Shown here: positions 2,417-59,483 of the stretch, in pieces
Layout of the letters: each line of letters begins with the position of its first letter
How positions within the stretch are numbered: the stretch's first letter is position 1
Virus record (IMG/VR): IMGVR_UViG_2908567220_000002
Span: 32,001 to 96,000 of that record
Source of the DNA: a virus
Taxonomy: Duplodnaviria; Heunggongvirae; Uroviricota; Caudoviricetes
Length of the DNA: 64,000 nt
Direction: 5' to 3' (one strand)
Program-made: the position numbers and the translations under genes
The notes under the pieces: generated by a model
The model's input: the letters and a program-made list of their open reading frames with translations, nothing else
Database searches by the model: none
What the model was told of the DNA's origin: nothing

Positions 2417-2767
2417 TCAATTTTGTAAATCTTCACGCCCAGCCGCCCCCCCAGGAACGCGCTGACCGCGCACAATATTGATTTCATCAAACTGCTCGTC
2501 GTCTATGAGAAGTCCGGCATGCGTCAGCGCATCCAGTGGTGCTTTCAGAATATTGTCCAGGTCACAACGGCGCTTATCCGGTGGCTCTGCAATAATCTTT
2601 ATCGCCAGCCTTCCGGACAGGTTTAATTTCAGTCGCTGCTGGCGAACAATTAGCGCCACATCACGGCGATAACGCTCACCGGCTTTTGAAACAAAATATG
2701 TGCTGCCACGACGTCGCCAGTAGGTATTCACCGTCGGCGGGTAAGGCAAAACAAACTCTATACGCAT
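2417..2767 (-). CDS. rusA: Holliday junction resolvase RusA
   Basis: 116 aa; LPYPPTVNTYWRRRG and DLDNILKAPLDALTHAG motifs characteristic of RusA. Confidence 0.9.
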   Translation of the reverse strand: MRIEFVLPYPPTVNTYWRRRGSTYFVSKAGERYRRDVALIVRQQRLKLNLSGRLAIKIIAEPPDKRRCDLDNILKAPLDALTHAGLLIDDEQFDEINIVRGQRVPGGAAGREDLQN

Positions 2768-2779
2768 CAGTAACCTCTT

Positions 2780-3829
2780 TTACCCGAGCACGCCGGTTGC
2801 AAAGGCGTGATCAAGAAAACGAAAAATTAAATCAACCTGAGAACCATGCTTTTCTTCGAACGCCAGCGGATCCGCATGAAGTTCGTTGTGATGCTCCCGG
2901 CACAGCGGTAGCGTGAAAATATCGTGAGCTTTTGTCCCCATTCCGCCCTGAGCATGACCAATCAGGTGATGGGGATCATCAGCTGGCTTACCACAGCACG
3001 AACACGGCTGTGTCTTTACCCAGCGTGTGTATTTCTCATTGACCCAACGGCGACGTTTAGGTCGTTTCATGAAAGATTCTGGAGACTCCGGATCAACAGT
3101 GATGCTGACCACCGTCTTTTTGTGAGGCGGGTTTTGTTGCTGGTAGGCGTGGCGCAGCGGCACAATATTTTTTGTGCGCTGCTTCAGTATGCTGGTGGCG
3201 CTCTGCTCTCCCGGTACGATGTCACTTTCGCGATACACCGAGTGGATTTTTTCCGCACGTAACCCCAGAGAACGACGTAATACTGCTTCCGGTAGCGCGT
3301 CCGCCACCTGATTGCAGACCGCCCACCAGGATAATTCAGCCAAAGATAATTCACGCTCCTGCGTACCGCTTATTGCGTGACCGATGACGTCAATCATCCA
3401 TGCTGACAGGTTTTGATGAGCAAGTTGCTCGAGTGATTCGGATGTCTGGTCACGCAGCTGGTTGTCGCAGTGCCAGCACAACACCATTGCGCCGGTACCA
3501 TAACGGTGAATGACGGTTTCGCTGTGATGATAATCGCCGTGTGGCCACTGGCAGGATTTAATATGGCGCAACAGCCAGTCAGACAATGCACCAGCACCAC
3601 CAGCAGCACGAATCACCCGTGCGTTACTGAAAAACGGCAGCAATGTTTTGTCTTCCACCAGCGGCTGGCGAGCGGCGGGAACAACCCCGGACGGCAGATT
3701 ACGCATGCTTTTCGGTTCCGGCTCCACCAGTACCCGGGTATTGTGGAATACCGGCATGGATTCACGGCCCGGCTTAACGATCACCAGCCCGAGTTCCGGT
3801 ACCAGAACAGGTCGAAGTAATACCCGCAC
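2780..3829 (-). CDS. DUF968 (YdfU-like) nin-region protein
   Basis: 349 aa; C-terminal CSCCGKP...HHLIGH...CREHHNELH zinc/HNH-like motif; sits between rusA and Rem-like gene as ydfU does in Qin. Confidence 0.7.
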   Translation of the reverse strand: MRVLLRPVLVPELGLVIVKPGRESMPVFHNTRVLVEPEPKSMRNLPSGVVPAARQPLVEDKTLLPFFSNARVIRAAGGAGALSDWLLRHIKSCQWPHGDYHHSETVIHRYGTGAMVLCWHCDNQLRDQTSESLEQLAHQNLSAWMIDVIGHAISGTQERELSLAELSWWAVCNQVADALPEAVLRRSLGLRAEKIHSVYRESDIVPGEQSATSILKQRTKNIVPLRHAYQQQNPPHKKTVVSITVDPESPESFMKRPKRRRWVNEKYTRWVKTQPCSCCGKPADDPHHLIGHAQGGMGTKAHDIFTLPLCREHHNELHADPLAFEEKHGSQVDLIFRFLDHAFATGVLG

Positions 3830-3830
3830 G

Positions 3831-4103
3831 TTACCTCCAGATGCGTTGCTGGAATGTGCGGGACGGACGCGGTGGGCGTTCGGAGTAAGGAAGCCTGACG
3901 GAGATTATCCAGTGACGATAATCGAGGCTGAGGGCTTTCTTAATCTCGTATCCGTGTCTGCGGTAGCACTGAATTAGCCACTCGACCTGTTCTTCAGTAC
4001 ATGGTGGGTGTTGGTACCAGTCGGTTTTAAATGCGTGTGAACGCCGCCCATGCCGGATGGCAAGGTCGGTATCAGAATTGTGAAATTTGGTTTTGTGCGC
4101 CAT
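3831..4103 (-). CDS. Rem-like small phage protein
   Basis: 90 aa ORF between hok and DUF968, matching Qin gene order; near-identical second copy at 51421..51699. Confidence 0.5.
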   Translation of the reverse strand: MAHKTKFHNSDTDLAIRHGRRSHAFKTDWYQHPPCTEEQVEWLIQCYRRHGYEIKKALSLDYRHWIISVRLPYSERPPRPSRTFQQRIWR

Positions 4104-4174
4104 CTGTTTTCTCTGCTGGCGCAGCAGGTGTCAGGTGTTCAGGCTGACGTGCGAATTGTAAACCAGAATGCCAG

Positions 4175-4202
4175 GAAAAAACAAAACCCGCCGAAGCGGG
4201 TT
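4175..4202 (-). terminator. rho-independent terminator downstream of hok
   Basis: minus-strand hairpin AACCCGCttcgGCGGGTT followed by T-run; same element recurs downstream of hok copy 2. Confidence 0.45.
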
Positions 4203-4270
4203 AAGTGCGGGTGCGTTGAGGATGCCTGACTCATCAGAGGTGGCGAGGGATTTCTCCCTCGCCTGGTCTC

Positions 4271-4426
4271 TTACTCCTCAGGTTCGTAAGCTGTGAAGAC
4301 AGCGACCTCCGTCTGGCCGGTTCGGATTCGTACCTCGCAGAGGTCTTTCCTCGTTACCAGTGCCGTCATTATGACGGTTAAACAGATGACGATCAGGGCG
4401 ATTAACATCGCCTTTTGCTGCTTCAT
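4271..4426 (-). CDS. hokD: Hok/Gef family type I toxin (HokD/RelF-like), 51 aa
   Basis: MKQQKAMLIALIVICLTVIMTALVTRKDLCEVRIRTGQTEVAVFTAYEPEE; track ORF 4271..4483 extends upstream in frame, true start at internal Met. Confidence 0.8.
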   Translation of the reverse strand: MKQQKAMLIALIVICLTVIMTALVTRKDLCEVRIRTGQTEVAVFTAYEPEE

Positions 4427-4836
4427 AGCCTGCTTCTCCTTGCCTTTCGGCACGTAAGAGGCTAACCTAGATTTGCCGTTCATAGATTGAGCCTCAGATT
4501 AATGTATAAGCGTCTTGCAGGACGCATAATGTTAACTGGGGCTTTTCTCTATCTGCCTTTGGTGTTCATGCTTGAGGCAGATAGCCTCAAGCACCCGCAG
4601 CAATTTTACTTAACTCCCCTTTTCCCACAAATCGTTTTTATCCCTACTGGTAATGTTCTCCCGATGTGGGATTCCCACATTGGAACGAATTCAATCAGTT
4701 AAAGACTCATCAGAATCTCACCTTTCTAAGTGCCCACAGGTGAGGCATTGCAATAAAAATAGCAAACGTGTATAAAAGGAGGTAATGCATGTTTTTCCAG
4801 TCTTATCAATCCATTACTGAGAGTTAAGGGGGCGCC

Positions 4837-5631
4837 GTGGATCGGTGCGGTAATTATTTACTTAAAGATGGTCGCAGTTTAGGACAAGGGAGTTTTGGCG
4901 AAGTATTTAAGGTTGATGTCTATAACTTAACCCAGACCCACATGACCACATATGCTCGCAAATACTTTTCACCTTGCCCGGACTTTGACAAGACCGCTAT
5001 AAAAGAGTTGACTGATTTAAGACAGCGTTTTTTAGTTGAGATCAAAACACAATGCACTCTCAATAGAATAAACTATGATTCAATAGCGCCAATAGTTTTA
5101 TTTAATACAAATGGTGATAAACCTTATTTTGTTATGGAATTGGCAGAGTGTAACTTATATGAAGCCATCCGCAATGGTATGAATTACGCGGAGAGGAAGT
5201 CTGCTGTTACTCAGATTTTAAAAGGAATTATCACCATACATGAAAACAACTATATACATCGTGATTTAAAACCAGGAAACATACTTTATTATGCCGATGG
5301 AAAGTATAAAATATCTGATTTTGGTCTAGTAAAAGACAGAGATACCTTACGGGCCGAAATCAAAACAAAATTTAAGCCTAATCACATGGGCACAGATGGA
5401 TATCGAGCGCCCGAAATACATGATAGCGGTCTTTTTTCTTTTCAAAGCGACATATTTGCAGCAGGTAAAATTATCACTGATATATATCCCACAGAAAGAA
5501 GTGAAAAATTAAAAAGATTGATTGCAAAATGTTGCGCACATTGGCCTGAAGAACGATATCAAAGCACACGGGAGTTACTGGAAGATTTTTTAAAAGTGAC
5601 GGGGGAGGTAAATCATGAAGAACATAATTGA
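4837..5631 (+). CDS. Hanks-type Ser/Thr protein kinase
   Basis: 264 aa; glycine loop GQGSFGEV, catalytic loop HRDLKPGN, DFG and APE motifs; GTG start with AAGGGGG RBS. Confidence 0.85.
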   Translation: MDRCGNYLLKDGRSLGQGSFGEVFKVDVYNLTQTHMTTYARKYFSPCPDFDKTAIKELTDLRQRFLVEIKTQCTLNRINYDSIAPIVLFNTNGDKPYFVMELAECNLYEAIRNGMNYAERKSAVTQILKGIITIHENNYIHRDLKPGNILYYADGKYKISDFGLVKDRDTLRAEIKTKFKPNHMGTDGYRAPEIHDSGLFSFQSDIFAAGKIITDIYPTERSEKLKRLIAKCCAHWPEERYQSTRELLEDFLKVTGEVNHEEHN

Positions 5632-6331
5632 AATGGCATGTTTTAGCCTAAAACAACCCCAAAAAAAAGAAAATGAAGACTTTTATTTACCGCCATCTTT
5701 TGATAGCGATTTTAACATTGTCTTTGCAGTAGCTGATGGGGTTGGTTCCTCTGAACATTCAATGCTTGCATCTCATGCAGCCATTCGTGGCATTAGACAC
5801 ACGCTAGGCACTTCCTTTTTCTCAATTGAAAGTGCATTTCATTCAGCTAAAAAAGAAATTGACAATTTAGATATTAGCACTGCCACAACCTTAACAATTG
5901 TTCAGATCAAAAAAAATGAAGTGTTAATTGGTCATTCCGGTGATTGCCGAGTATACTTCAATAAAAACAACAAACTAAATCAGTTAACCACTGATCAAAC
6001 GAGATATCAAGAACTCCTTGATTCTGGTGAACATAAATTACGTAATTTAAGAAATCATAAAGAACGGCTATCTTCAGTCCTAACGAATGCTTTATCAAAT
6101 ACAACGGATTTGAATTTTGAGTTAATGTCTTTTCCGATTAGCCAGCTAATTTATAATGGCTATCTTCAACTCTATGCAATGACTGATGGTGCCTATAAGC
6201 ATTGGGATGTCAGACCAAGGTTTTCTGAGAAGACAATGCTCTCACCAACAGCTTTTGCGAGTAGTTTAAGAAAAAGGATTGAGAAAAACATAATGGATGA
6301 TTACACTTTTATAGGCGTAAAAGTAACCTAA
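5615..6331 (+). CDS. PP2C/PPM-family Ser/Thr phosphatase
   Basis: 238 aa; VADGVGS, GDCRVY and MTDGAY metal-binding motifs; GGAGG RBS; start overlaps kinase 3-prime end by 17 nt. Confidence 0.8.
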   Translation: MKNIIEMACFSLKQPQKKENEDFYLPPSFDSDFNIVFAVADGVGSSEHSMLASHAAIRGIRHTLGTSFFSIESAFHSAKKEIDNLDISTATTLTIVQIKKNEVLIGHSGDCRVYFNKNNKLNQLTTDQTRYQELLDSGEHKLRNLRNHKERLSSVLTNALSNTTDLNFELMSFPISQLIYNGYLQLYAMTDGAYKHWDVRPRFSEKTMLSPTAFASSLRKRIEKNIMDDYTFIGVKVT

Positions 6332-6590
6332 TTTTAGATATCCAAGATATTTACTCTAATTTAACCATAGTATTCCCAACCTCTTTTTATTGGGGGTTGG
6401 GTTCATTAAAGTCACCATTTTCTATTTCTTTCCCGTTAGAGGATATATTATTTCCAGATAAAGAAAGCAACTTCTTATGCAACTTCATATCACGCCATGC
6501 TTCCACCGCGGTAACTCTACATAGTCCATTAACAGTTCATGCCATTCTTCAAAACTGGCGTTATATTTAGTTGAAGCAAAATCAGCCATT

Positions 6591-6764
6591 TTATTCTTCC
6601 TCTTCGTCTTTTATTTCGTGATATGAGTAATTGCAGTAGTTAAAGAAAATATCTTTTGCTTCGTCATGTATTTCATCAGGCGTCGCATCATCATCCACTT
6701 CGAATTCATCCTCGAAATCTCCACCGGCTATTCCCGTTTCAATAATTATTTTGAACTTTCGCAT
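6591..6764 (-). CDS. small acidic hypothetical protein (57 aa)
   Basis: manually translated minus-strand ORF MRKFKIIIETGIAGGDFEDEF..., below the 60 aa track cutoff; followed by a 34 aa ORF. Confidence 0.3.
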   Translation of the reverse strand: MRKFKIIIETGIAGGDFEDEFEVDDDATPDEIHDEAKDIFFNYCNYSYHEIKDEEEE

Positions 6765-6853
6765 TTAACTACCGCCCTGCCGGACAGCCTCCTGATGTTC
6801 TGAGGGCGCCCCCCTCCGGTTAAGGATTAAATTTTTAACAGTGCTAAATTTAA

Positions 6854-7210
6854 TTATTCAGTTCTTGATTTTGTCGCCCTGCGTATCCGCGCTTTCGCGT
6901 TACGCTCAATCTGAATTAGCTTTTCTATATTTTTCCGCCTTTCCTGTTCCTCCTGGAGCAATAACCTTACATCATCTGCCAGTCTGGTTTCTCTTTTCGC
7001 CACAGAGAGCATCCAGTCAAATGGCTCCACAACTGCACCGCAGATTTTACAGCGGACCTGACGCTCTTTTTCGTCAACCCGGACAGAGGCGTGATGGCAA
7101 TATGGTCTTTCCGATGGCTCATAAAGAAAATTAACCTGATTACGAGGGTCATCCTCTTTTGCCGGAAATAAAACGATATTGCTTAACTCATCTTCTGGTT
7201 TTATTTCCAT
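6854..7210 (-). CDS. hypothetical phage protein with Cys/His cluster
   Basis: track ORF 6854..7291; probable start at MEIKPEDEL; CHH...CKIC motif. Confidence 0.45.
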   Translation of the reverse strand: MEIKPEDELSNIVLFPAKEDDPRNQVNFLYEPSERPYCHHASVRVDEKERQVRCKICGAVVEPFDWMLSVAKRETRLADDVRLLLQEEQERRKNIEKLIQIERNAKARIRRATKSRTE

Positions 7211-7907
7211 GCTCCTCTCCTTTGATGCGAATGCCAGCGGCGCGTGGCACATTAACTTCCACGATGCGCACAGTTGGTTTGTACATCTCAATCGCTGTCA
7301 GCCAGTCAGCTCCTGTCATGCGTTTTTCCGCATCGCCATTAGTCCACTGAACCGGCACACCAATAGCCTTCATCGCGATTTCTATTTCCCCGGCAATGGC
7401 GCTTTTTCCGCAACCAGTAAAACCAGATACAACGACAAGAACTTCGCCTTTGGCTGGTTTTATTTCCCGTGCTTCCAGTTCTGCTATGCGCTTACTTCCA
7501 TCCGCGATTACTCCCTCGTAATACTCACGCTGCTCGTTGAGTTTTGATTTTGCTGCTTCAAGCTCAACGCGCAGCTTCCCTACCGTTAGCGCAATCTCCT
7601 CGTTCTCCTGGTCGCGGCGTTTTATGTATTGCTGGTTTCTTTCCCGTTCATCCAGCAGTGCCAGTACGGTAGCCGGGTTAGCCTCTGCTATAAATGCTGC
7701 GTTTGCATAAGCCTGAGCATCTGTTTCAACCAGGCAGTTAGCATGACATTCTGCAATCACGCCACCGGGTTCTCCTTTCCATTTTTGACAAACAAAAACT
7801 CCTGTTAAATTGCCGTACTGGTTAACAGATGTATGCCCTACGATGTAGCTTCCTTTAGTTGCTTTTTCTGCCTTGGCACGCAGTACCTGATAGTCAATCT
7901 TGCTCAC
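7188..7907 (-). CDS. ea22-like early protein
   Basis: 239 aa with coiled-coil middle region, resembles Ea22 family of lambdoid early-left/right regions. Confidence 0.55.
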   Translation of the reverse strand: MSKIDYQVLRAKAEKATKGSYIVGHTSVNQYGNLTGVFVCQKWKGEPGGVIAECHANCLVETDAQAYANAAFIAEANPATVLALLDERERNQQYIKRRDQENEEIALTVGKLRVELEAAKSKLNEQREYYEGVIADGSKRIAELEAREIKPAKGEVLVVVSGFTGCGKSAIAGEIEIAMKAIGVPVQWTNGDAEKRMTGADWLTAIEMYKPTVRIVEVNVPRAAGIRIKGEEHGNKTRR

Positions 7908-8388: not shown

Positions 8389-8807
8389 TGCGCTACCTCC
8401 TGAAAATTACCCTGATAAAACGACAATATGCGCTGCATAACTTCGCTCTTCCGGCACTCACAGCAAATTATATTTTGGTGCCTGTCATAACGACGTATTT
8501 CTCCGTCTGGTAATGACCAGATAAGATCCGGATCAGCCACAGATGCTTTCTTCACTTTCGCCCTCGAGAGTTTTTTGCGGGCGTTTTGCCAGTCCTTACG
8601 CGCCTGCTCAGACGGGAATAACCCGTAACCAGAGTTGTATACATCGCCGCTGGCAACCAGCTCTCTTGCGAGAACGCTCATCAGATATCTTGTCGCACCT
8701 GTCTTGACTTCCAGTTGCCGTAACGTCTCACGCCCACTCTGGCGTACGAGTTCAACAACCTGTCCTTTAATTTTTTCCCGCTCTTCTTGTGTAAAAACTT
8801 TTGCCAC
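8385..8807 (-). CDS. conserved hypothetical phage protein, possible winged-helix
   Basis: 140 aa; homolog in prophage B at 55796..56218. Confidence 0.5.
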   Translation of the reverse strand: MAKVFTQEEREKIKGQVVELVRQSGRETLRQLEVKTGATRYLMSVLARELVASGDVYNSGYGLFPSEQARKDWQNARKKLSRAKVKKASVADPDLIWSLPDGEIRRYDRHQNIICCECRKSEVMQRILSFYQGNFQEVAQ

Positions 8808-8847
8808 AAGCCCTCCTGAAAATTACCTCATGACCAGAAATTAACAC

Positions 8848-9924
8848 TTACCCCCTGAAGCCCGGCGGAATTTCGTTATCCGGTTCAGAAATATGATTCA
8901 CACAACGCTGGTTGTTCGTGCCGCTTACCGGGAGCAACCAGGGGTTCTCAAAATTCCGGTCCGGTCCAAAAAACGTCGTCGCTCGCTGAACAAATTCCGT
9001 TCCCGTTTTCCCGGTAGCCGCCAAGTATCTTGCGTAACGCCTCACGCCATCCAGCATGGCCTCTGGTGGCACCCCCTCGCGTAATCTGGCCTTCCAGGCA
9101 CTGAAAGCGGATTTCTTCGGGTTTGCCCCAGCACGCAACGGGTACTCCCGCCAGACCTGTTCGAACACATCCGGATAATCCACTCGTCCCACAGACTGCC
9201 CGGTGTTTTCCGGGACTACCCGATCGGCTTCCCGCTGAATGGCGGAATCGGCTTCGGGCTGCTGCAGTTGGTGTGATTGCTCCGGCCTTGCGGTCATCAC
9301 CTGCTGCACAGCGCCCGAATCGGCTTTCAGCGCATACGCTGAATCGGCTTCCGGTGTCGTGCCTGCTAGCTGACCAAGATTGACGGTCTGAACATCCCCT
9401 GCCTGGTTCGTGGCGTTTTTTACGCCATGGACCATAGTGTTTTGATCTTCTTGATCTGTATCTTTATCTGTATCTTTATCTGTCGTGACTCGTCGTGACA
9501 TGTGCGTGACATTTCGTGACGCGCCGTGACAATCGCCATTTTGTTCCCGCTTTCTTTCCCTCTCTCGCTGCGCCCTCTTGCGCTCTGCCGGAGATTTTGC
9601 GGTTTGCGAAATATTGCCGTTGTCCTCTTTAAGCACCTGGCGTTTTTCCCATCCAGTGATTAAATCACCATCAAGTACCCGCCCCTGCATCGTCTGCAAA
9701 ATTGAATCAATTACCTCTTCTGTCACGTCGAGCGCACTTGCCAAATCTTCTGTCGTGACATCAATGTGACCTCGCGTGACATTTCGTGACGCGCTCACCA
9801 GGAGGTGGATATACACTGCCATCACTGTTGCAATTGGCTGCCCTGACACCCTGGCAATTGTTCGCCACTTAGGGTCATTTGGCATGTCATGCCATAATCT
9901 GAGCCAGGCGTTAGCCATACTCAC
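8848..9924 (-). CDS. replication initiation protein (replisome organizer-like)
   Basis: 358 aa; C-terminal region including ...QRCVNHISEPDNEIPPGFRG shared with the prophage B O-like protein. Confidence 0.6.
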   Translation of the reverse strand: MSMANAWLRLWHDMPNDPKWRTIARVSGQPIATVMAVYIHLLVSASRNVTRGHIDVTTEDLASALDVTEEVIDSILQTMQGRVLDGDLITGWEKRQVLKEDNGNISQTAKSPAERKRAQRERERKREQNGDCHGASRNVTHMSRRVTTDKDTDKDTDQEDQNTMVHGVKNATNQAGDVQTVNLGQLAGTTPEADSAYALKADSGAVQQVMTARPEQSHQLQQPEADSAIQREADRVVPENTGQSVGRVDYPDVFEQVWREYPLRAGANPKKSAFSAWKARLREGVPPEAMLDGVRRYARYLAATGKTGTEFVQRATTFFGPDRNFENPWLLPVSGTNNQRCVNHISEPDNEIPPGFRG

Positions 9925-9989
9925 CTCTTCTGATACCGAATCTTTTTACTCACGAGTTGCCGGAAGCGATTCGATATGGCTATTGTCAG

Positions 9990-10415
9990 TCAATGTACTG
10001 CCACAGCATTTCCTGCCGGGCCACCACGGTTCATCTGATTGAAACCGGCGATTGCCACTGCGACAAAATCATCAGCGTCTCTCACCAGTCGCTCCCGCGT
10101 CTCCACCAGCTCCCGAAAATAAGCTGAACTGTGGCTGCGCATTCGGGCCACCAGCAGAGGTGGCATTGCTTTTTCGATAGCTGGTAACAACGCCTGAATT
10201 TTTTTAACCGCATCAGGGGTGTCTTTCTCCACCCAGCGGAAAATTTTCTGAGTATTGCGAGCCAGGGCTTCCGGATGGCTGTCGTCATACAGTTCCGGGA
10301 ACGTCATTCCCAGCTCGAAATACGCTTTGGTAATTTTCGCAGCCGGTACTTTTTCGCCGTCCGGATGCGCCCAGGCATTCATCGCCATGCGGATGTGTTC
10401 ATGCTTGATTTTCAT
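9990..10415 (-). CDS. YdaT-like (CII-position) regulatory protein
   Basis: 141 aa, MKIKHEHIRMAMNAW...; directly downstream of cro-like gene; paralog at 58764..59189. Confidence 0.55.
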   Translation of the reverse strand: MKIKHEHIRMAMNAWAHPDGEKVPAAKITKAYFELGMTFPELYDDSHPEALARNTQKIFRWVEKDTPDAVKKIQALLPAIEKAMPPLLVARMRSHSSAYFRELVETRERLVRDADDFVAVAIAGFNQMNRGGPAGNAVAVH

Positions 10416-10666
10416 GAATCAACTCCCATCAGCTTTTTCGTAGTAGTTTTATTCCTGCCAATAGTTAAAATTGCATCGGCAGAAAATAATCCGTTTGATG
10501 CAAGAGCGATTTTTTCAGCGTAATTTGTTTCGCCGGTATATTCTGTGCGAGGCAATTTTCCGTTATCCATCCATTTATAGATTGCTCTTTGGCTGACACC
10601 ACAAACGTCGGCCACAACAGCAACGCGAACAGTTTTGATTACATCTTCAAGTGTTTTCTGGTTCAT
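10412..10666 (-). CDS. Cro/YdaS-like HTH regulator
   Basis: track ORF 10412..10738, probable start MNQKTLEDV; HTH VADVCGVSQRAIYKW; divergent from repressor. Confidence 0.6.
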   Translation of the reverse strand: MNQKTLEDVIKTVRVAVVADVCGVSQRAIYKWMDNGKLPRTEYTGETNYAEKIALASNGLFSADAILTIGRNKTTTKKLMGVDS

Positions 10667-10690
10667 ATCACCCTCACAATGTGAACTTTG

Positions 10691-10721
10691 AGTACATGCT
10701 ATAACAGAACTGACAGTACAT
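10691..10721. promoter_or_regulatory. putative right operator region (AGTACAT repeats)
   Basis: AGTACAT at 10691 and 10715 between divergent cro-like and repressor genes; same motif recurs downstream of repressor. Confidence 0.35.
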
Positions 10722-10745
10722 TCAAGAGCGAATATCATTGAACTT

Positions 10746-11165
10746 ATGGTTCATGAAGATAAAGCGCGTAAAGAGTTCGCCAGTAGGCTTGCGCTAGCCT
10801 GTGAAAACGCTGGTTATGAACAACATGGAAGGCAGGCAGAAATTGCCCGTCGAATGAAATTAACACCAAAAGCGGTTAGCAAATGGTTTAATGGCGAAAC
10901 AATTCCTCGCCGGGAGAAATTAAGGGAATTAGCAACACTAATAGGAACAACACCAACCTATCTTTTGGGAGAGGATACAGAAGAAAGTGGACAGGTACGT
11001 TTCTATCAGGAGTTAAATCCAAGACAAAAAATCATCATTGACCTTCTGGACGAGCTCCCTGACAGTGAGACAGATGAACTTTTAAAAACTCTTGAAGAGA
11101 AAAAACAGAAGTACAATGCAATTTACGAAGAGTTAGCACGAAAGAAAAAACAAAAAGCCTCTTAA
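10746..11165 (+). CDS. CI-like prophage repressor
   Basis: 139 aa; HTH QAEIARRMKLTPKAVSKWFNG; divergent from cro-like gene. Confidence 0.7.
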   Translation: MVHEDKARKEFASRLALACENAGYEQHGRQAEIARRMKLTPKAVSKWFNGETIPRREKLRELATLIGTTPTYLLGEDTEESGQVRFYQELNPRQKIIIDLLDELPDSETDELLKTLEEKKQKYNAIYEELARKKKQKAS

Positions 11166-11240
11166 ACCAGCATAAATCCGGTAGCGCCTTCCTCCGGGTT
11201 TGTGCTTCACTTTATCCCATCTCATTTTTTTACACACAAA

Positions 11241-11281
11241 ATGTACTAAAAGTACTTTACAACAATGAACGCAAAGTACAT
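11241..11281. promoter_or_regulatory. putative left operator region (ATGTACT/AGTACAT)
   Basis: ATGTACTaaaAGTAC palindrome and AGTACAT repeat downstream of repressor. Confidence 0.3.
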
Positions 11282-11459
11282 TATATGCCTGCCACCCACC
11301 CCGCCCCACAGAATGCAGGGCAATACTTCGAGTTACCAGGCAGTGGTCAGGGGGTAAGTAGCCAGCCCGAGGCGTAAGAACATGACGGCAGGGTTCAACT
11401 TTAACTATGCAGCAGGTTTTTGTTCCGCTACCCCGGCGTTAAGGGGAAATGAGGTCAAC

Positions 11460-11615
11460 ATGGATACTATCGATCTTGGCAACAACGAATCTCTGGTATA
11501 CGGCGTGTTTCCCAACCAGGACGGAACGTTCACCGCGATGACGTATGCCAAAAGCAAAACGTTTAAAACCGAATCTGGCGCGCGTCGTTGGTTGGTAAGA
11601 CATTCAGGTGAATAA
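11460..11615 (+). CDS. YdfA/YdaF-like small protein (DUF1391-like)
   Basis: 51 aa MDTIDLGNNESLVYGVFPNQDGTF...; GAGG RBS; paralog at 60240..60392. Confidence 0.55.
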   Translation: MDTIDLGNNESLVYGVFPNQDGTFTAMTYAKSKTFKTESGARRWLVRHSGE

Positions 11616-49989: not shown

Positions 49990-50360
49990 TTTTTGACCTG
50001 CTCTTCATGCATTATGGGGTAAATCTTCACCCCCAGACGTCCACCAGATACTGGCTGACCACGAACGATATTGATTTCATCAAACTGCTCATCGTCCATT
50101 AACACTCCCGCATGCGTCAGCGCATCCAGCGGTGCTTTCAGGATATTGTCCAGGTCGCGACGACGCTTATCCGGTGGCTCTGCAATCACCTTTATCGCCA
50201 GCCTTCCGGACAGGCTTAATTTCAGCCGCTGCTGGCGAACAATAAGCGCCACTGCCCGGCGATAACGCTCCCCGGCTTTTGATACAAAATATGTGCTGCC
50301 ACGGCGTCGCCAGTAAGTGTTCACCGTCGGCGGGTAAGGTAAAACCAAATCTATGAGCAT
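49986..50360 (-). CDS. rusA: Holliday junction resolvase RusA (copy 2)
   Basis: 124 aa, same conserved core as 2417..2767 with divergent termini. Confidence 0.9.
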   Translation of the reverse strand: MLIDLVLPYPPTVNTYWRRRGSTYFVSKAGERYRRAVALIVRQQRLKLSLSGRLAIKVIAEPPDKRRRDLDNILKAPLDALTHAGVLMDDEQFDEINIVRGQPVSGGRLGVKIYPIMHEEQVKK

Positions 50361-50372
50361 CAGTCACCTCTT

Positions 50373-51419
50373 TTACCCAAGCACGCCAGTTGCAAAGGCG
50401 TGATCAAGAAAACGAAAAATTAAATCAACCTGAGAACCATGCTTTTCTTCGAACGCCAGAGGATCCGCATGAAGCTCGTTGTGATGCTCCCGACACAGCG
50501 GTAGCGTGAAAATATCGTGAGATTTTGTCCCCATTCCGCCCTGACCATGACCAATCAGGTGATGGGGATCGTCGGCTGGCTTACCACAACACGCACACGG
50601 CTGTGTCTTCACCCAGCGTGTGTATTTCTCGTTAACCCAGCGGCGACGTTTAGGTCGTTTCATGAAAGATTCCGGAGACTCAGGATCAACGGCAATGCTG
50701 ACCACCGTCTCTTCCTGTGGCGGGTTTTGCTGGTGGGCGTGAGGCAGCGGCGCAAGATTTTTTGTGCGCTGCTTCAGTATGCTGGTGGCGGTCTGCTCTC
50801 CCGGTACGATGTCGCTTTCACGGTACATTGAGCGGATTTTTTCCGCACGCAACCCCAGCGAACGACGTAATACCGCTTCCGGTAGCGCGTCCGCCACCTG
50901 ATTGCGGACCGCCCACCAGGATAATTCAGCCAGAGATAATTCACGCTCCTGCGTACCGCTTATTGCGTGACCGATGACGTCAATCATCCATGCTGACAGG
51001 TTTTGATGAGCAAGTTGCTCGAGTGATTCGGATGTCTGGTCACGCAGCTGGTTGTCGCAGTGCCAGCACAACACCATTGCGCCGGTACCATAACGGTGAA
51101 TAACGGTTTCGCTGTGATGATAATCGCCGTGTGGCCACTGGCAGGATTTAATATTGCGCAACAGCCAGTCAGACAATGCACCAGCACCACCAGCAGCACG
51201 AATTACCCGTGCGTTACTGAAAAACGGCAGCAATGTTTTGTCTTCCACCAGCGGCTGGCGAACGGCAGGAACGACCCCGGACGGCAGATTACGCATGCTT
51301 TTCGGTTCCGGCTCCACCAGTACCCGGGTATTGTGGAATACCGGCATGGATTCACGGCCCGGCTTAACGATCACCAGCCCGAGTTCCGGTACCAGAACAG
51401 GTCGAAGTAATACCCGCAC
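50373..51419 (-). CDS. DUF968 (YdfU-like) protein (copy 2)
   Basis: 348 aa, near-identical to 2780..3829. Confidence 0.7.
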   Translation of the reverse strand: MRVLLRPVLVPELGLVIVKPGRESMPVFHNTRVLVEPEPKSMRNLPSGVVPAVRQPLVEDKTLLPFFSNARVIRAAGGAGALSDWLLRNIKSCQWPHGDYHHSETVIHRYGTGAMVLCWHCDNQLRDQTSESLEQLAHQNLSAWMIDVIGHAISGTQERELSLAELSWWAVRNQVADALPEAVLRRSLGLRAEKIRSMYRESDIVPGEQTATSILKQRTKNLAPLPHAHQQNPPQEETVVSIAVDPESPESFMKRPKRRRWVNEKYTRWVKTQPCACCGKPADDPHHLIGHGQGGMGTKSHDIFTLPLCREHHNELHADPLAFEEKHGSQVDLIFRFLDHAFATGVLG

Positions 51420-51420
51420 G

Positions 51421-51699
51421 TTACCTCCAGATGCGTTGCTGGAATGTGCGGGACGGACGCGGTGGGCGTTCGGAGTAAGGAAGCCTGACGGAGATTATCC
51501 AGTGACGATAATCGAGGCTGAGGGCTTTCTTAATCTCGTATCCGTGTCTGCGGTAGCACTGAATTAGCCACTCGGCCTGTTCTTCAGTGCATGGGGGATG
51601 CTGGAACCAGTCAGATTTGAAAGTGCGGGAACGCCGCCCGTGCCTGCTGGCAAAGACGGCAGAATCATCAGAATTGTGTAATTTGGTATCGTGCGCCAT
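51421..51699 (-). CDS. Rem-like small protein (copy 2)
   Basis: 92 aa paralog of 3831..4103. Confidence 0.5.
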   Translation of the reverse strand: MAHDTKLHNSDDSAVFASRHGRRSRTFKSDWFQHPPCTEEQAEWLIQCYRRHGYEIKKALSLDYRHWIISVRLPYSERPPRPSRTFQQRIWR

Positions 51700-51758
51700 C
51701 GGTTGTCTCTGCTGGCGCAGCAGGTGCCAGTTGTTCAGGCTGGCTCACGTATTATAAC

Positions 51759-51980
51759 TTATTCCCGAACTACCTTGAAACCGAGTCTTTCCAAGTATTC
51801 AATGAATGCCTCAACAGATAACACTACATGATCATCAGGAATTAACGCTGTGTAGGTAATACCCCCATTCTCAACGCGCACAGCATAGAGGCCATCTTCA
51901 CTAAAAATTTCACGTAATTCTTCGATTTTCATCAACAGAATCCTTCCAGATAAATAGCACTCCCCCTGTTCGGGGTCCAT
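51759..51980 (-). CDS. hypothetical small protein
   Basis: 73 aa; absent from syntenic position in prophage A. Confidence 0.45.
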   Translation of the reverse strand: MDPEQGECYLSGRILLMKIEELREIFSEDGLYAVRVENGGITYTALIPDDHVVLSVEAFIEYLERLGFKVVRE

Positions 51981-52057
51981 CCCTCTTCTCCCTGCGCGCT
52001 ACTTAAGTATTTTTGATTCTATTCTGGCACCGTCCAAAACTTCAAACACGTTGAAAA

Positions 52058-52083
52058 TAAAAACAAAAAACCCGCCGAAGCGG
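52058..52083 (-). terminator. rho-independent terminator after HTH-ImmA gene
   Basis: minus-strand hairpin CCCGCttcgGCGGG followed by T-run, just downstream of stop at 52090. Confidence 0.45.
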
Positions 52084-52089
52084 GTATAC

Positions 52090-53196
52090 TCAAACAATCT
52101 GGAAAATATTTCTTGGATTTGTAATAGGTCTGTTGATGGAGAACAACTCACGAATTAAATCTTGGCTCAAGCCAGTTTTCATAAGAATTCTTAGCCAGGT
52201 TGCATCATCCAGCATTTCAATCGCCTCGGCCAGCATGCCGGGTTCTTCAGGGCGCAAAAGTTCATCACCAGGTTCAACTCTCGTATACCCTCTGGAATTA
52301 AGATGCATATAGCCAGTTCTTGCCTGTTCCTGGGTCAATAAGCCTAATGCGCTGGCTCGATAAATACACATTTTAAGGCTGATTTTCCATCTAAGTTTAA
52401 ATTCAACCAGAGCATTCCAGTCGAATTGCTTACCTCGTATTCGTGGAAATTCTTTAATGAAAGATAACCTGGGAACTAATAAGGCGCTCGAAAAGTGATC
52501 GGCTTGTGATTCCGTAAGTTTATCACCTGTCGTTATGCCCTCATGCATTACTAAATGCCCTAATTCATGACCTAAATCAGAGCGAAATCTACATATGCTT
52601 TTTTTAACATTGTTCCTGATGATAACAGGCCTGTTATTGTGAACAGTAAAAGCATCAACACGATCATCGACTCCCGTAACATGCGCAACGATTACCCCTA
52701 AACTCTCCGCCAATTTAACCATTGATGATATAGGGCCAAGACCTAAATTCCAGGCACGGCGACAATCTTCTGCCACTCGCTCAATATCATTCGGAGTAAG
52801 TAATTCAGCCCCTGGGTGCTCCGGTATGTTAACGTCAGGAAATTCGATTTCACCTTCAACAGCAGAAATTATAATATTAAGAATCTCAGCCCTGGCCAAT
52901 ACACTATTAGTCAGCGTTTGAGTCCTGGACTTCTTACTCCGAAAATGGCAGACATCACTTTCCAGAGCGTATTTTCGTTCAGTAAAAAGAAAACTGGACT
53001 TAATCATAAGCGCTGAAGATATTAACTCAAGACATTGCTCCGATGGCCTGCACCCCTTCTCCAGTTTGCTAACGAATTGCTTTGTCTTGCCAATTTTTTC
53101 GGCTAACTCTTCACAAGAAAGCCCAACAGCCATTCTCGCTAGTTTGAGCTTATCACCCCGATACTCAGTGAAGTTATTCACCTGATGTTCCATCAC
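52090..53196 (-). CDS. XRE-family HTH fused to ImmA/IrrE-type zinc metallopeptidase
   Basis: 368 aa; N-terminal HTH LSCEELAEKIGKTKQFVSKLEKG; HEXXH motif HELGHLVMH. Confidence 0.75.
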   Translation of the reverse strand: MMEHQVNNFTEYRGDKLKLARMAVGLSCEELAEKIGKTKQFVSKLEKGCRPSEQCLELISSALMIKSSFLFTERKYALESDVCHFRSKKSRTQTLTNSVLARAEILNIIISAVEGEIEFPDVNIPEHPGAELLTPNDIERVAEDCRRAWNLGLGPISSMVKLAESLGVIVAHVTGVDDRVDAFTVHNNRPVIIRNNVKKSICRFRSDLGHELGHLVMHEGITTGDKLTESQADHFSSALLVPRLSFIKEFPRIRGKQFDWNALVEFKLRWKISLKMCIYRASALGLLTQEQARTGYMHLNSRGYTRVEPGDELLRPEEPGMLAEAIEMLDDATWLRILMKTGLSQDLIRELFSINRPITNPRNIFQIV

Positions 53197-53824
53197 TGCT
53201 CACATCCAAATCTTTATCCTTCGTACGCCGACGAAGAGGCACCTTATTAATCTCCGCTTCGTCAGGGAGTGTGTTATAATCAAGAGGCATAAGCGGCATC
53301 GATGCTGTAGATTGATGAGAAACTATACTAATCTGAGCACCATAAGTATTAAATCCAACAAGAGCTACCTCCCAACGAGGCAGTGTGGACTCTAATTCAC
53401 CATCGCCCTCTTCGGATAAAAAAGGCTCAGCTATGACTCGCCATGTAATATCTTGCTCAGCCTCAACATCACCAAACAATGAGAGCTGCTCATACTCTAC
53501 TTTATTTCGACGCAGACGATGTTTCTTTTTGGGGTTATTAATGCAATCTTTGGTAAATTGTAGCGGAACTTTATTTAAAGCAACTACATAGTCCAACCCC
53601 TTGGAAATCATCTCAAGGCCAGGAATTGCATCTTCATTTTGAATAAGATGATTTCTGACCCAATCATAAGCCCTTACACCTTCAGACCAGTTGCTGTCTA
53701 ATGCGTGCTTATGATAGTACAGCTGCTCAAGTACGTTAGCGATCTCCGCCAACAAGTGGCGAACATAGTTTTCAGCAAGATAAGGTTGAAATTCCCAACA
53801 AGGAGCTAACTGATTTTCATTCAT
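53174..53824 (-). CDS. hypothetical protein, upstream partner of HTH-ImmA gene
   Basis: 216 aa, no recognisable motif; 3-prime end overlaps start of HTH-ImmA gene by 23 nt. Confidence 0.5.
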   Translation of the reverse strand: MNENQLAPCWEFQPYLAENYVRHLLAEIANVLEQLYYHKHALDSNWSEGVRAYDWVRNHLIQNEDAIPGLEMISKGLDYVVALNKVPLQFTKDCINNPKKKHRLRRNKVEYEQLSLFGDVEAEQDITWRVIAEPFLSEEGDGELESTLPRWEVALVGFNTYGAQISIVSHQSTASMPLMPLDYNTLPDEAEINKVPLRRRTKDKDLDVSSDGTSGE

Positions 53825-53898
53825 TTCAAGTTTCGCTTTTTTTAGAATTCGTAAACCACATATTTTCGCATTTTTCTATTTTTGTCAACCAGACTAAT

Positions 53899-53920
53899 GC
53901 AAAAACCCGCCGAAGCGGGT
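53899..53920 (-). terminator. rho-independent terminator downstream of hok copy 2
   Basis: same AACCCGCttcgGCGGGTT hairpin plus T-run as at 4175..4202. Confidence 0.45.
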
Positions 53921-53989
53921 TAAGTGCGGGTGCGTTGAGGATGCCTGGCACATCAGAGGTGGCGGGAGATTACTCCCCCGCCGGGTCTC

Positions 53990-54145
53990 TTACTCCTCAG
54001 GTTCGTAAGCTGTGAAGACAGCGACCTCCGTCTGCCCGGTTCGGATTCGTACCTCGCAGAGGTCTTTCCTCGTTACCAGTGCCGTCACTATGACGGTTAA
54101 ACAGATGACGATCAGGGCGATTAGCATCGCCTTTTGCTGCTTCAT
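53990..54145 (-). CDS. hokD: Hok/Gef family type I toxin (copy 2)
   Basis: 51 aa MKQQKAMLIALIVICLTVIVTALVTRKDLCEVRIRTGQTEVAVFTAYEPEE within track ORF 53990..54202. Confidence 0.8.
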   Translation of the reverse strand: MKQQKAMLIALIVICLTVIVTALVTRKDLCEVRIRTGQTEVAVFTAYEPEE

Positions 54146-54436
54146 AGCCTGCTTCTCCTTGCCTTTCGGCACGTAAGAGGCTAACCTACGTGTGTAGAGC
54201 ATAGATATGGCCTCAGATTAATGTTAAGCGTCTTGCCGGACGCGTAATGTTAACTGGGGCTTTTCTCTATCTGCCTTTTGGTGTTCATGCCTGAGACAGA
54301 TAGCCTCAAGCACCCGCTGCAATTCTACTTAACTCTCCTTTTCCCGCAAACCGTTTTTATCCCCAGCGGCAAATCGAATACACCACCAGCGCCACCGCCA
54401 TCGCAATTCCTACCGTTGTTAATGCTTCAGGCCAGG

Positions 54437-54781
54437 TCATCGTAAAATATCCTCCACGCTTATCAGTCCGTTCCGCTCCAGATAACTCATCGCCTTATCC
54501 GGTAATTTGCAGTCTGGCTTCGCTTTCCTCAGTTGCCAGGTTAACTGCTTTACCAGCATGGTTAACTCATCGACCAGACGCTGATATCCCACTGGTTTGT
54601 ATTCATGCAATTTACCGGCTGGCTCTGCTGCCAGCGATACCAGTGCGATTTCCAGAACAGCAATATCCATCTTATATGTGCGGATGATGTCATGGTCGAT
54701 TGTGCCCGGTATGCACAGTCTCTGTGCTTCAATAGTCTCCTCTGCGTGAGCTATTAACTGCTCTCTGGTAAAAGTCGTCAT
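54437..54781 (-). CDS. hypothetical phage protein
   Basis: 114 aa; start overlaps stop of upstream small ORF (ATGA). Confidence 0.5.
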
Positions 54782-54945
54782 GCCGTAGCCCCTTCTTGAT
54801 ATTTTTCAAACCAGAACACAACCGGCTCTGCTTCCAGTGATGCCAGCGCAATCCGTGCCAGTTCCATTTGTTCACCACGGGTAAGCCCGTTTTCAAGCGG
54901 GTTTTTAATGAACAATTCAATACGTTCTTTGGTAATAGTGGTCAT
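54778..54945 (-). CDS. small hypothetical protein (55 aa)
   Basis: manually translated [34 protein letters not shown]...; GGAG RBS; below track cutoff. Confidence 0.4.
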
Positions 54946-54955
54946 GTGTTACTCC

Positions 54956-55219
54956 TTAACCCGCAGTGCTTTCAACTGATGAGGGGAACAAAATCTTTTC
55001 ATCAAACCCTGCATTCATATCATGAACAGCAACACACCAATCCATCGACGAACGATTATCAAGAGCCTCCATGATTTCATCCATGCGGCGTAGGTCATAC
55101 AGGTAAATGCTTTTATCGCCAATGGTGTAAAAGCCAATTTTTTTCGGTGATGGACAGCGATCAAGAACTTCCTGTAATTCGTTCAACCATGCCCGTTCTT
55201 TTTTTGTCAAAGTTGCCAT
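54956..55219 (-). CDS. hypothetical protein
   Basis: probable start MATLTKKERAWLNELQ within track ORF 54956..55309. Confidence 0.45.
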   Translation of the reverse strand: MATLTKKERAWLNELQEVLDRCPSPKKIGFYTIGDKSIYLYDLRRMDEIMEALDNRSSMDWCVAVHDMNAGFDEKILFPSSVESTAG

Positions 55220-55220
55220 A

Positions 55221-55439
55221 TCAGTTTTCCTTATACGGATTAATTTTATTGTGCAGTGTGTTGAACGACGCCCATACAACGTCGGTATACAATTCAGTAA
55301 CTGGCTCAATTATTTTCCCGATTGCCCAGACAAAAATTAGAGGGGATATCGGTATCATCAATACGATAAACAGAATGAGAAACAAAAATTCTGTCGCTCT
55401 ACTTTTTTGCGGATATTCTTTTCTGAATAATGTAGTCAT
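55221..55439 (-). CDS. small putative membrane protein
   Basis: 72 aa with hydrophobic segment FLFLILFIVLMIPISPLIFVWAIG. Confidence 0.4.
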   Translation of the reverse strand: MTTLFRKEYPQKSRATEFLFLILFIVLMIPISPLIFVWAIGKIIEPVTELYTDVVWASFNTLHNKINPYKEN

Positions 55440-55471
55440 TTCTTACCGCCCTTTCGGGCGGCCTCCCGACA

Positions 55472-55684
55472 TTAATCGTTGTGGTAACTCATGGCTTCAT
55501 TTGCAGCATCAACCGGATCAACTTCCCACCAGCAATAATTTGGTGCGTTTCCTTCAGGTGTCCACGGTTCTAATTCATTTTTTGCCACATTCTCGTCGCC
55601 AGTAATTTTAAAAATCTGTTCAGAGAATTTTTTCACCCACTCGTTATATTTTTCAGTGTTAATAATTTTCTGTGTATTTGACAT
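55472..55684 (-). CDS. hypothetical protein
   Basis: 70 aa ORF in early operon. Confidence 0.4.
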   Translation of the reverse strand: MSNTQKIINTEKYNEWVKKFSEQIFKITGDENVAKNELEPWTPEGNAPNYCWWEVDPVDAANEAMSYHND

Positions 55685-55795
55685 AGATATACCTCCAGTT
55701 AAGGATTAAATTTTATTTACAGTGCTGAACTTAATTATTCAGATTTGGATTATGCTTTCTCTTTCTCTTCACGAAGTTCCGATTGTTAATTTGGC

Positions 55796-56218
55796 TCACA
55801 ACAGCACCTTCTGAAAATTCCCCTGATAGAAAGCCAGTACACGCTGCATAGCTTCACTCTTCCGGCACTCGAGACAGATTATGTTCAGACGCCTGTCGTA
55901 GCGGCGTATTTCGCCATCTGGTAATGACCAGATAAGGTCCGGATCAACCGCAGATGGTTTCTTCAGCTTTGCCCTTGAGAGTATTTTGCGTGCATTTTGC
56001 CAGTCTTTACGAGCCTGTTCAGACGGGAATAACCCGTAACCAGAGTTGTATACATCACCACTGGCAACCAGCTCTCTGGCCAGAAGGCTCATCAGATATC
56101 TTGTTGCCCCAGTTTTAGTTTCCAGTTGTCGTAACGTCTCGCGCCCACTCTGGCGTACGAGTTCAACAACCTGCCCTTTAATTTTTTCCCGCTCTTCTTG
56201 TGTAAATACTTTTGCCAT
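55796..56218 (-). CDS. conserved hypothetical phage protein (paralog of 8385..8807)
   Basis: starts MAKVFTQEEREKIKGQVVELVRQ, about 85 percent identical to prophage A copy. Confidence 0.5.
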   Translation of the reverse strand: MAKVFTQEEREKIKGQVVELVRQSGRETLRQLETKTGATRYLMSLLARELVASGDVYNSGYGLFPSEQARKDWQNARKILSRAKLKKPSAVDPDLIWSLPDGEIRRYDRRLNIICLECRKSEAMQRVLAFYQGNFQKVLL

Positions 56219-56233
56219 AAGCGCCTCCGGCAA

Positions 56234-57004
56234 TCACTTTTCCGATACAACACGGCGGGAAGAATCAGTAATCTGTCGAACAATATCCCGGTGCTTGTTC
56301 AGCTCCCGCAGCGCGGCGCAGACTCGCTCCCACTTCTGAACATCACTTTTCGCCCTGCGCAGCGCCAGGTTTGCCCTGCGAAGGGACGGAAAAATCAGCT
56401 CATCTGCTTGCGTTTCGGTAAACGATGGCAACGGCTGCACAATGTCCGCCACAGTTTCTGTTTTAATTTCTTCCTGTGTTGCGGCTTCCCGGACTGGTAA
56501 CGCAGCACCTGCTGGCTGAGGAAAGGCCTTACCATCACTTTCCGTTACCAGCGCGGCTTTCGGCTCTGCTGGTAAATTATCGCCCGGCATGCAGTAACGA
56601 AATTTACCGTTCTGATTAACGCGTGCCAGCCGCCCCGTTGCGGTTACCACCGCCAGCGTGGAAGCAACCTTGCGAGTACTGACACCGAACTTACCCGCCA
56701 GTTCCTCACACGTTTTAGCCCCATCCTGACCGATAAACTCAATCATCATGTCTGCGGTAACTTTTTGTTCGACCTCCCCGGTCAGCATATCCTGTGCTTC
56801 AGATTTTACTGGCCGCTCTTCGGTTACCCGGGATTCACCTTCGCCAGCCAGAAACCAGGTGTGACCAGTTTTATCAACGACGCCTTTTCTTTTGAGTTCC
56901 CACAGCTCGTTGACAGCCTCTTCACGACTGATTCCAAGGCGAGCTGCCACCACATGTGAAGAGGCTTTTTTCAGTGCTTTCAGTGCGTCAGATACGGTTT
57001 CCAT
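56234..57004 (-). CDS. hypothetical protein with N-terminal winged-helix-like region
   Basis: 256 aa between DnaC-like gene and 140 aa gene. Confidence 0.45.
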   Translation of the reverse strand: METVSDALKALKKASSHVVAARLGISREEAVNELWELKRKGVVDKTGHTWFLAGEGESRVTEERPVKSEAQDMLTGEVEQKVTADMMIEFIGQDGAKTCEELAGKFGVSTRKVASTLAVVTATGRLARVNQNGKFRYCMPGDNLPAEPKAALVTESDGKAFPQPAGAALPVREAATQEEIKTETVADIVQPLPSFTETQADELIFPSLRRANLALRRAKSDVQKWERVCAALRELNKHRDIVRQITDSSRRVVSEK

Positions 57005-57025
57005 TAAAATTTCCTCCGGACAAAA

Positions 57026-57772: not shown

Positions 57773-57778
57773 GACACG

Positions 57779-58756: not shown

Positions 58757-58763
58757 CGTGCTT

Positions 58764-59454: not shown

Positions 59455-59483
59455 AGCTACTCCTTAGTAAACACAGCAAAGAA

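Follow-up and report, generated by a model that had tools for sequence, protein, structure and literature searches.

The locus analysed here raises the question of what a lambdoid prophage does with a protein kinase and a protein phosphatase of its own, encoded in two overlapping genes. In order to answer it, we examined a 64,000-nucleotide (nt) stretch of Caudoviricetes DNA (IMG/VR record IMGVR_UViG_2908567220_000002, positions 32,001 to 96,000; this whole stretch is called the window below), in which a Rac-like lambdoid prophage carries the pair at positions 4837-6331. An initial annotation, made from the sequence alone, had described a Hanks-type Ser/Thr kinase next to a PP2C phosphatase. 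The pair belongs to a conserved two-gene family, kinase first and phosphatase second, that was previously uncharacterised; no study of this two-gene family was found when the literature was searched by accession numbers and keywords. By analogy, a kinase restrained by its cognate phosphatase and serving abortive infection or host modulation, as the initial annotation had suggested, is the most plausible reading, and we give a probability of roughly 45% to the pair being a phosphorylation-based, toxin/antitoxin-like module of defence or exclusion.

Both open reading frames (ORFs) were located on the plus strand with the 17-nt overlap that had been claimed for them (Table 1). All the listed motifs were found as well, GQGSFGEV, HRDLKPGN, DFG and APE in the kinase and VADGVGS, GDCRVY and MTDGAY in the phosphatase. 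RefSeq carries the same two ORFs, with the same kinase start, in E. coli O103:H2 12009, under the names 'serine/threonine protein kinase' and 'PP2C family protein-serine/threonine phosphatase'. The kinase matched Pfam Pkinase (1.4e-31, above the gathering score) and PHROG 2361, 'serine-threonine kinase' (2.6e-51), and with 88.9 bits did not reach the 450-bit cut-off of the NCBIfam Stk1 PASTA kinase equivalog. Pfam gave kinase-domain families only along its 264 amino acids (aa), with no accessory domain, and the AlphaFold model is a bare kinase fold. [quoted passage not shown] The kinase shows all the features of the Hanks-type superfamily, namely the Gly-rich loop, the VAIK Lys, the αC Glu, the HRD, DFG and APE motifs and the bilobal fold. 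The kinase call is thus borne out by profile searches, by a confident structure model and by complete catalytic motifs.

We further compared residues across a non-redundant set of 51 pairs, which also served for the coupling and co-divergence analyses below. In all 51 kinases, G16/G18/G21, K42, E68, H141-R142-D143, N148, D161-F162-G163, D205 and R240 are invariant. Position 177 in the activation loop is Thr or Ser in 51/51 and position 186 in 50/51. Kinases of the arginine-aspartate (RD) type are normally turned on by phosphorylation of this loop, so an RD kinase with Thr/Ser there presents an obvious target for a phosphatase.

The PP2C assignment was likewise supported, both by Pfam and NCBIfam profiles and by the structure model. 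The phosphatase matched Pfam PP2C_2 (PF13672; 1.4e-10, above the gathering score) and NCBIfam Stp1_PP2C (8.6e-19), the latter with 68 bits against an equivalog cut-off of 230, which was not reached. Its AlphaFold model (pLDDT 93.9) found its best Foldseek matches in the bacterial PPM phosphatases MspP, tPphA, PstP and Stp1 (E ~1e-14, TM ~0.75). Residues D22, D41-G42, G109-D110, D191-G192 and D228-D229 are invariant in 51/51, the Asp residues being metal-binding, and the protein shows the metal-binding Asp of motifs I, II, VIII and XI and the β-sandwich fold of the PPM/PP2C superfamily. Judged from these residues, both enzymes are catalytically intact. As a side observation, the phosphatase covers only positions 273-517 of the PHROG 5650 profile (length 565); some phage members of that group may therefore exceed it in length, perhaps as fusions of kinase and phosphatase or through wrongly merged ORFs.

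In homologue searches, bare kinases of ~255 aa formed one tight family and PP2Cs of ~245 aa a second one parallel to it; both occur in Enterobacterales, Vibrionales, Aeromonas, Shewanella, Pasteurellales, Acinetobacter, Pseudomonas and Xanthomonas. Scores of the kinase family fall sharply towards all other kinases, and no kinase fused to a cold-shock domain (CSD) or an FHA domain was seen among the neighbours in these searches. The family is small: at E <= 1e-30, the phosphatase has matches among only 11 of 1.84 billion representatives clustered at 50% identity. When one bacterial genome per species was scanned with the phosphatase as seed, 24 family loci were obtained, and a single intact kinase lay directly upstream on the same strand in 22 of them; the exceptions were L016, where the kinase is split, and L021, which has no kinase remnant. 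A kinase-seeded scan of IMG/VR gave 39 loci, of which 38 were testable (the remaining contig stops 325 nt after the kinase), and each of the 38 had a phosphatase directly downstream. No second kinase was seen within ±6-8 kb in 60 or more family loci, and the window likewise holds a single kinase ORF. Overlaps, or gaps of at most 9 nt, join the genes in 45 of the 51 non-redundant pairs, with a 4-nt overlap in 33; the pairs are usually, as far as this spacing tells, translationally coupled. The pairwise-identity matrices of kinases and phosphatases correlate with r = 0.86, a value reached by none of 999 Mantel permutations. These results show that the two genes are inherited as a unit and co-diverge. 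Both decayed loci, L016 and L021, keep the phosphatase and lose the kinase, which is the direction of loss that a toxic kinase would lead one to expect.

Experimental precedent for a kinase/phosphatase toxin-antitoxin defence comes from KKP, a prophage operon of the PP2C phosphatase PfpC and the kinases PfkA and PfkB (Guo et al. 2024, Nat Commun, PMC11341870). KKP works as a tripartite toxin/antitoxin that defends against T phages and is triggered when T4 Gp59 inhibits PfpC (PMC11341870). Our reading of the window pair as a defence module is drawn by analogy with KKP and with pairs of the PknB/PstP type. The bare RD kinase would autophosphorylate its conserved activation-loop Thr/Ser, with T177 and T186 as the predicted sites, and, once active, would phosphorylate many host (and phage) proteins, leading to growth arrest. 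The co-translated PP2C would constantly reverse this phosphorylation, at the activation loop, on the substrates or on both, and the lysogen would stay healthy; overall, the two would form a phosphorylation-based, type VII-like toxin/antitoxin pair. A competing phage could tip the balance, either because one of its proteins inhibits the phosphatase (cf. T4 Gp59 on PfpC) or because the supply of phosphatase is lost, and the unrestrained kinase would then abort or slow the infection.

The same cassette might instead be read from its phosphatase. As a counter-defence module, the phage PP2C would erase the marks left by host kinase defences (Stk2-, PD-T4-6- or KKP-like), with the kinase as an auxiliary. 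Kinase-based defences do exist in the same hosts (PMC11341870; PMC9519451), and the cassette is phage-borne. However, this account leaves unexplained why the kinase is intact in 51/51 pairs and why translational coupling runs kinase-first, and no orphan phage phosphatases of the family were seen, besides the two decayed bacterial loci. We regard it as highly improbable.

Near-identical copies of the cassette occur in 33 of 5426 complete E. coli genomes, including O103:H2, O145:H28, O157:H7, O45:H2, O121 and enterotoxigenic strains (ETEC) from pigs. The exact proteins are found on at least 1000 assembled contigs (O103, O145, O157, O45 and O121 strains), under generic names only. Among 50,697 phage records, no near-identical phage DNA was found, only distant protein-level pairs in two viable sequenced phages: in Escherichia phage Flotzy the pair lies between Rz and terS, and in Cronobacter phage phiES15 just after Q. 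On viral contigs the family neighbours endolysins, Q antiterminators, RusA, Rz spanins, small terminases (TerS) and antirepressors (Ant), and in bacterial genomes KilA-N, TerL, portal, integrase, holin and Mu-like head genes, plus some ordinary chromosomal genes. These settings mark the cassette as a mobile lambdoid moron that uses several classic accessory sites (Q, lysis, terminase).

Such sites bring up a different function. As a host-takeover module of the lytic cycle, the pair would be expressed with the late genes and retune host Ser/Thr phosphorylation for phage production, in spirit like T7 gp0.7, while the phosphatase would keep collateral damage in check or remove phospho-signals of the host. 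The pair is co-oriented with the upstream gene in 33/36 IMG/VR loci, mostly alongside late genes, among Q, endolysin, Rz and TerS genes, and the position between Rz and terS in Flotzy agrees with this. In phiES15 the pair follows Q directly after a terminator-like hairpin; in Shiga toxin (Stx) phages, stx occupies this same position just past Q. The hairpin in phiES15 is strong (GAGCCCACTTTGAGTGGGCTTTTTTATTG; L003 ~5900-5960) and lies between Q and the pair, upstream of the kinase, which places the cassette where Q-dependent read-through would drive its expression. In the window, however, the pair runs against the entire early-right operon and so lies outside the lytic transcript, an arrangement that is atypical for the family given that co-orientation is usual. 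In addition, a non-coding stretch of 110-200 nt has been retained upstream in every lineage, as is common for morons that bring a promoter along; takeover genes are normally early, not late; and Q-lysis-terminase sites also hold many morons expressed in lysogeny. We consider host takeover unlikely.

Several of these observations weigh against a defence function of the pair all the same. The late-gene sites of most relatives and the post-Q site in phiES15 fit lytic-cycle expression equally, and the prevailing co-orientation with the upstream gene points the same way. The argument from asymmetric decay concerns two loci only. A known defence system is adjacent in only 1 of ~20 bacterial loci, where Gabija-family (GajA/GajB) matches adjoin the pair. 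The phosphatase matches no PADLOC model (none at E <= 1), and the PADLOC matches of the kinase are generic. Finally, the KKP kinases are singly non-toxic and need their CSD and FHA domains (PMC11341870); since the window kinase has neither, the KKP analogy may fail to transfer.

KKP also suggests another role, namely a regulatory module of prophage or host in the sense of lysogenic conversion. The pair would phosphorylate host regulators, e.g. nucleoid proteins, and thereby control the induction of its own or co-resident prophages, or host physiology or virulence. KKP governs Pf lysogeny in this manner, by phosphorylating the H-NS-family protein MvaU (PMC11341870). Two related lambdoid prophages lie within the 64-kb window, which makes the host polylysogenic, and the cassette is common in lineages of Shiga-toxigenic E. 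coli (STEC) rich in prophages. Against this, the sequence reveals no specific substrate or regulatory link, and the cassette moves among very different phage types and hosts, which favours a host-generic function. A regulatory role is, in our estimate, an outside chance, about on a par with host takeover.

Taken together, we still prefer a toxin/antitoxin-like defence module for the window pair. Its extension to the whole family is more tentative: the family may be a minimal, phosphorylation-based (type VII) toxin-antitoxin immune switch of one bare-domain Hanks kinase and one PP2C, without sensor or adaptor domains, in which phages would be sensed wholly by way of the phosphatase or of the balance between the two enzymes. 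Its origin would be separate from that of KKP, and as a lambdoid moron it would have reached Enterobacterales, Vibrionales, Pasteurellales and further Gammaproteobacteria, major STEC lineages among them.

The surroundings of the pair in the window indicate how it arrived and how it might be controlled. On one side lie hok (HOK_GEF 1.8e-23), DUF968, RusA and Q, and on the other DUF7167, a Zn-ribbon protein, Ea22-like, DUF977, the replication genes and cro. All of these flanking genes are encoded on the minus strand, which puts the pair antisense within the early-right operon; the initial annotation had described it as convergent with that operon. Its placement of the pair between hok and the ea22-like gene was correct for hok, which adjoins; on the other side, two small minus-strand genes, encoding the DUF7167 protein and a 118-aa Zn-ribbon protein, precede the Ea22-like gene. 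A self-BLAST of the window showed that homology to the second prophage ends at 4644 and starts again at ~6813, and the block between has a guanine-cytosine (GC) content of 33-37% (~35%), compared with ~50% in the flanks. The break in homology and the low GC mark this block as a horizontally acquired insert. They support the earlier description of the pair as moron-like and outside the core lambdoid content. The pair had also been reported as absent from the syntenic site in the second prophage, and indeed the homologous flanks there (53902-54363 and ~55692) enclose unrelated small ORFs in the interval 54363-55692, with no pair.

Table 1. Features of the pair and its surroundings, in window coordinates
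Feature	Position	Strand	Description	Basis
Kinase ORF	4837-5631	+	795 bp, 264 aa; GTG start with TAAGGGGG just 5' of it; minimal Hanks-type (eukaryotic-like) RD Ser/Thr kinase, bare catalytic domain	Pfam, PHROG, AlphaFold, invariant residues
Phosphatase ORF	5615-6331	+	717 bp, 238 aa; ATG start with GGGGGAGG just 5' of it; PPM/PP2C-family Ser/Thr phosphatase	Pfam, NCBIfam, AlphaFold/Foldseek, invariant Asp
Low-GC block specific to the first prophage	4645-6812		Upstream non-coding region, kinase, phosphatase, 3' spacer, DUF7167 gene	Self-BLAST and GC
Candidate sigma-70 promoter (weak, inferred)	4748-4776	+	TTGCAA-17 nt-TATAAA	Direct sequence reading
12-codon upstream ORF (uORF)	4789-4827	+	MFFQSYQSITES; perfect AAGGAGG Shine-Dalgarno in front; stop 9 nt before the kinase GTG	
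GC-rich hairpin	6375-6401	+	10 bp; 44 nt past the phosphatase stop, between convergent genes	RNA fold
DUF7167 gene	6591-6764	-	57 aa, very acidic	Pfam, 7.1e-15
Ea22-like gene	7191-7907	-		Ead_Ea22, 3.3e-39
Insertion by hok in the second prophage	51757-53900		2.1 kb, absent from the first prophage; encodes RosmerTA	
RosmerTA ORF	52090-53196	-		PADLOC
RosmerTA ORF	53174-53824	-		PADLOC

Being antisense to all its neighbours, the pair would need a promoter of its own, for which there is a weak candidate (Table 1). A consensus promoter scan did not report this candidate, whose -10 hexamer is without the final T. The antisense placement also suggests how the cassette might be regulated: in the lysogen, expression would be driven by a promoter belonging to the pair, and on prophage induction read-through transcription from pR would damp or silence it. 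The uORF in front of the kinase was rejected as a conserved leader because it shows no conservation upstream of the pair in Xenorhabdus/Photorhabdus relatives, which share a different conserved stretch of ~140 nt there. Downstream of the phosphatase, the region 6325-6425 folds at -21.3 kcal/mol (z = -2.3); the hairpin within it has no U-tract and so is not a canonical intrinsic terminator, and the terminator scan gave no call for it. Promoter and terminator scans made no calls flanking the pair, and the sole two terminator-like calls overlie the kinase start codon.

The DUF7167 gene shares the low-GC block with the pair on the opposite strand. It was rejected as a third component, as it is absent from all other family loci; from its acidity, the protein could be a DNA mimic or an anti-defence protein.

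The two related Rac-like lambdoid prophage segments of the window correspond at 2425-4644 versus 50019-54363 and at 8395-11593 versus 55806-60373. In both, blocks of 83-95% identity (DUF968, hok, DUF977 and the replication region) are separated by accessory inserts that differ between the two. One of these inserts lies by hok in the second prophage and encodes RosmerTA (RmrT, PADLOC 4.6e-25; RmrA, PADLOC 6.2e-105, with HTH_3 and Peptidase_M78). With RosmerTA beside the hok of the sister prophage, the hok-flanking region behaves as a defence/accessory hotspot in both prophages. This, like the Gabija-family matches by the pair in one bacterial locus, lends modest support to the defence reading.

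Prophage defence by kinases or by kinase/phosphatase modules is already known, and the module described here is another prophage kinase/phosphatase switch, not a categorically new one. If the reading as a defence module is right, however, no simpler kinase-based immune module would be known, as this one consists of two small enzymes without accessory domains, and modules of prophage kinase and phosphatase would be seen to have more than one origin. [quoted passage not shown] As the cassette is common in prophages of Shiga-toxigenic E. coli, it could shape which phages, therapeutic or Stx-converting ones among them, can grow there. The family was missed by present annotation, by the PADLOC models and by the published KKP search.

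How does the pair compare with known systems? Its kinase matches the PADLOC models mad6 (1e-37), PD-T4-6 (1e-32) and Stk2 (3e-25) in the catalytic domain only, covering positions 16-202 of 327 in the PD-T4-6 model PDLC04047 and 162-360 of 500 in the Stk2 profile. The Stk kinase of phage 933W and KKP-type kinases match the same models equally well or better. Stk2 is reportedly a single-gene kinase defence. PD-T4-6 is a single-kinase system as well (Vassallo et al. 2022, PMC9519451), and PADLOC calls even housekeeping streptococcal kinases PD-T4-6 (PMC11514479). PD-T4-6 and Stk2 share the Hanks-type kinase domain with the window kinase but are longer proteins and have no phosphatase. Membership in PD-T4-6, Stk2 or mad6 was rejected, the matches being partial-length and generic to the kinase domain.

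The Stk kinase of 933W, which the initial annotation had cited as a precedent, is said to be a prophage kinase that causes abortive infection of HK97. Like the window kinase, it is an accessory, lysogen-expressed, eukaryotic-like kinase in a lambdoid prophage of pathogenic E. coli. In contrast to the window kinase, which is RD and paired with a phosphatase, the 348-aa Stk is non-RD (HFD), lies in the immunity region beside cI and has no partner phosphatase; by its activity it is reported as a tyrosine kinase (Friedman 2011, as relayed in PMC9122126). The two proteins are 27% identical in the C-lobe only, so the homology is distant and the relevance of this precedent had been overstated.

Housekeeping Stk/Stp pairs (PknB/PstP, PrkC/PrpC, Stk1/Stp1) likewise combine an RD Hanks kinase and a PPM phosphatase in one operon, and there the phosphatase dephosphorylates the activation loop of the kinase. 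They differ from the window pair in their large membrane kinases with PASTA or other sensor domains, in their place on the core chromosome and in usually having the phosphatase first. The TerY-P triad, reportedly a defence system of the vWA protein TerY, a PP2C and a kinase, shares the combination of Ser/Thr kinase and PP2C phosphatase; membership was excluded, as there is no TerY/vWA gene near the pair, whose neighbours are hok, DUF7167, the Zn-ribbon protein and Ea22.

The earlier statement that the pair is no named defence system is thus strictly true, with no PADLOC match for the phosphatase, generic matches for the kinase and an organisation unlike that of KKP; it had missed, however, that KKP is the nearest system. 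KKP is carried by Pf6 and by P2/P4/Mu-like prophages in Gram-negative hosts, and its kinases end in additional domains, a C-terminal CSD with a GFI/A motif in PfkA and a C-terminal FHA domain in PfkB (PMC11341870). The published search for KKP defined it operationally as a PP2C gene followed by two kinase genes, each gene being 900-1300 bp long (PMC11341870, Methods).

We also came across a KKP-type triplet, reached via a weak kinase match, in the unannotated record of the P2-like Klebsiella phage Kp4865-2 (OK490418.1; L083 3881-7072), adjoining the integrase. It encodes a PP2C of 364 aa and, after it, two kinases of 358 aa and 356 aa, the latter with a GFI-like 'SGFIDGD' motif. Pfam found neither CSD nor FHA in the C-terminal extensions of these kinases at E <= 0.01, so the triplet is KKP-type by gene order and size alone. 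The window kinase is 29% identical to the first kinase of this triplet, whereas the two phosphatases show 32% identity over 76 aa only (pairwise E 2e-4) and no phmmer match. A tblastn search with CspA for KKP cold-shock kinases in phages returned ordinary cold-shock genes only.

In summary, the window pair and KKP are both prophage-borne in Gram-negative hosts, and both join Hanks-type Ser/Thr kinases to a PF13672 PP2C in one operon. The window pair differs in having one kinase instead of two adjacent Pkinase genes, no C-terminal CSD or FHA, the order kinase-phosphatase instead of phosphatase-kinase-kinase, genes shorter than the KKP size range (Table 1) and a family typically found in lambdoid phages. 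Membership in KKP was rejected on the single kinase, the reverse order, the shorter genes, the missing CSD/FHA and a similarity at the level of the superfamily. KKP is the closest characterised system, and the resemblance to it is one of functional architecture, not of family membership.

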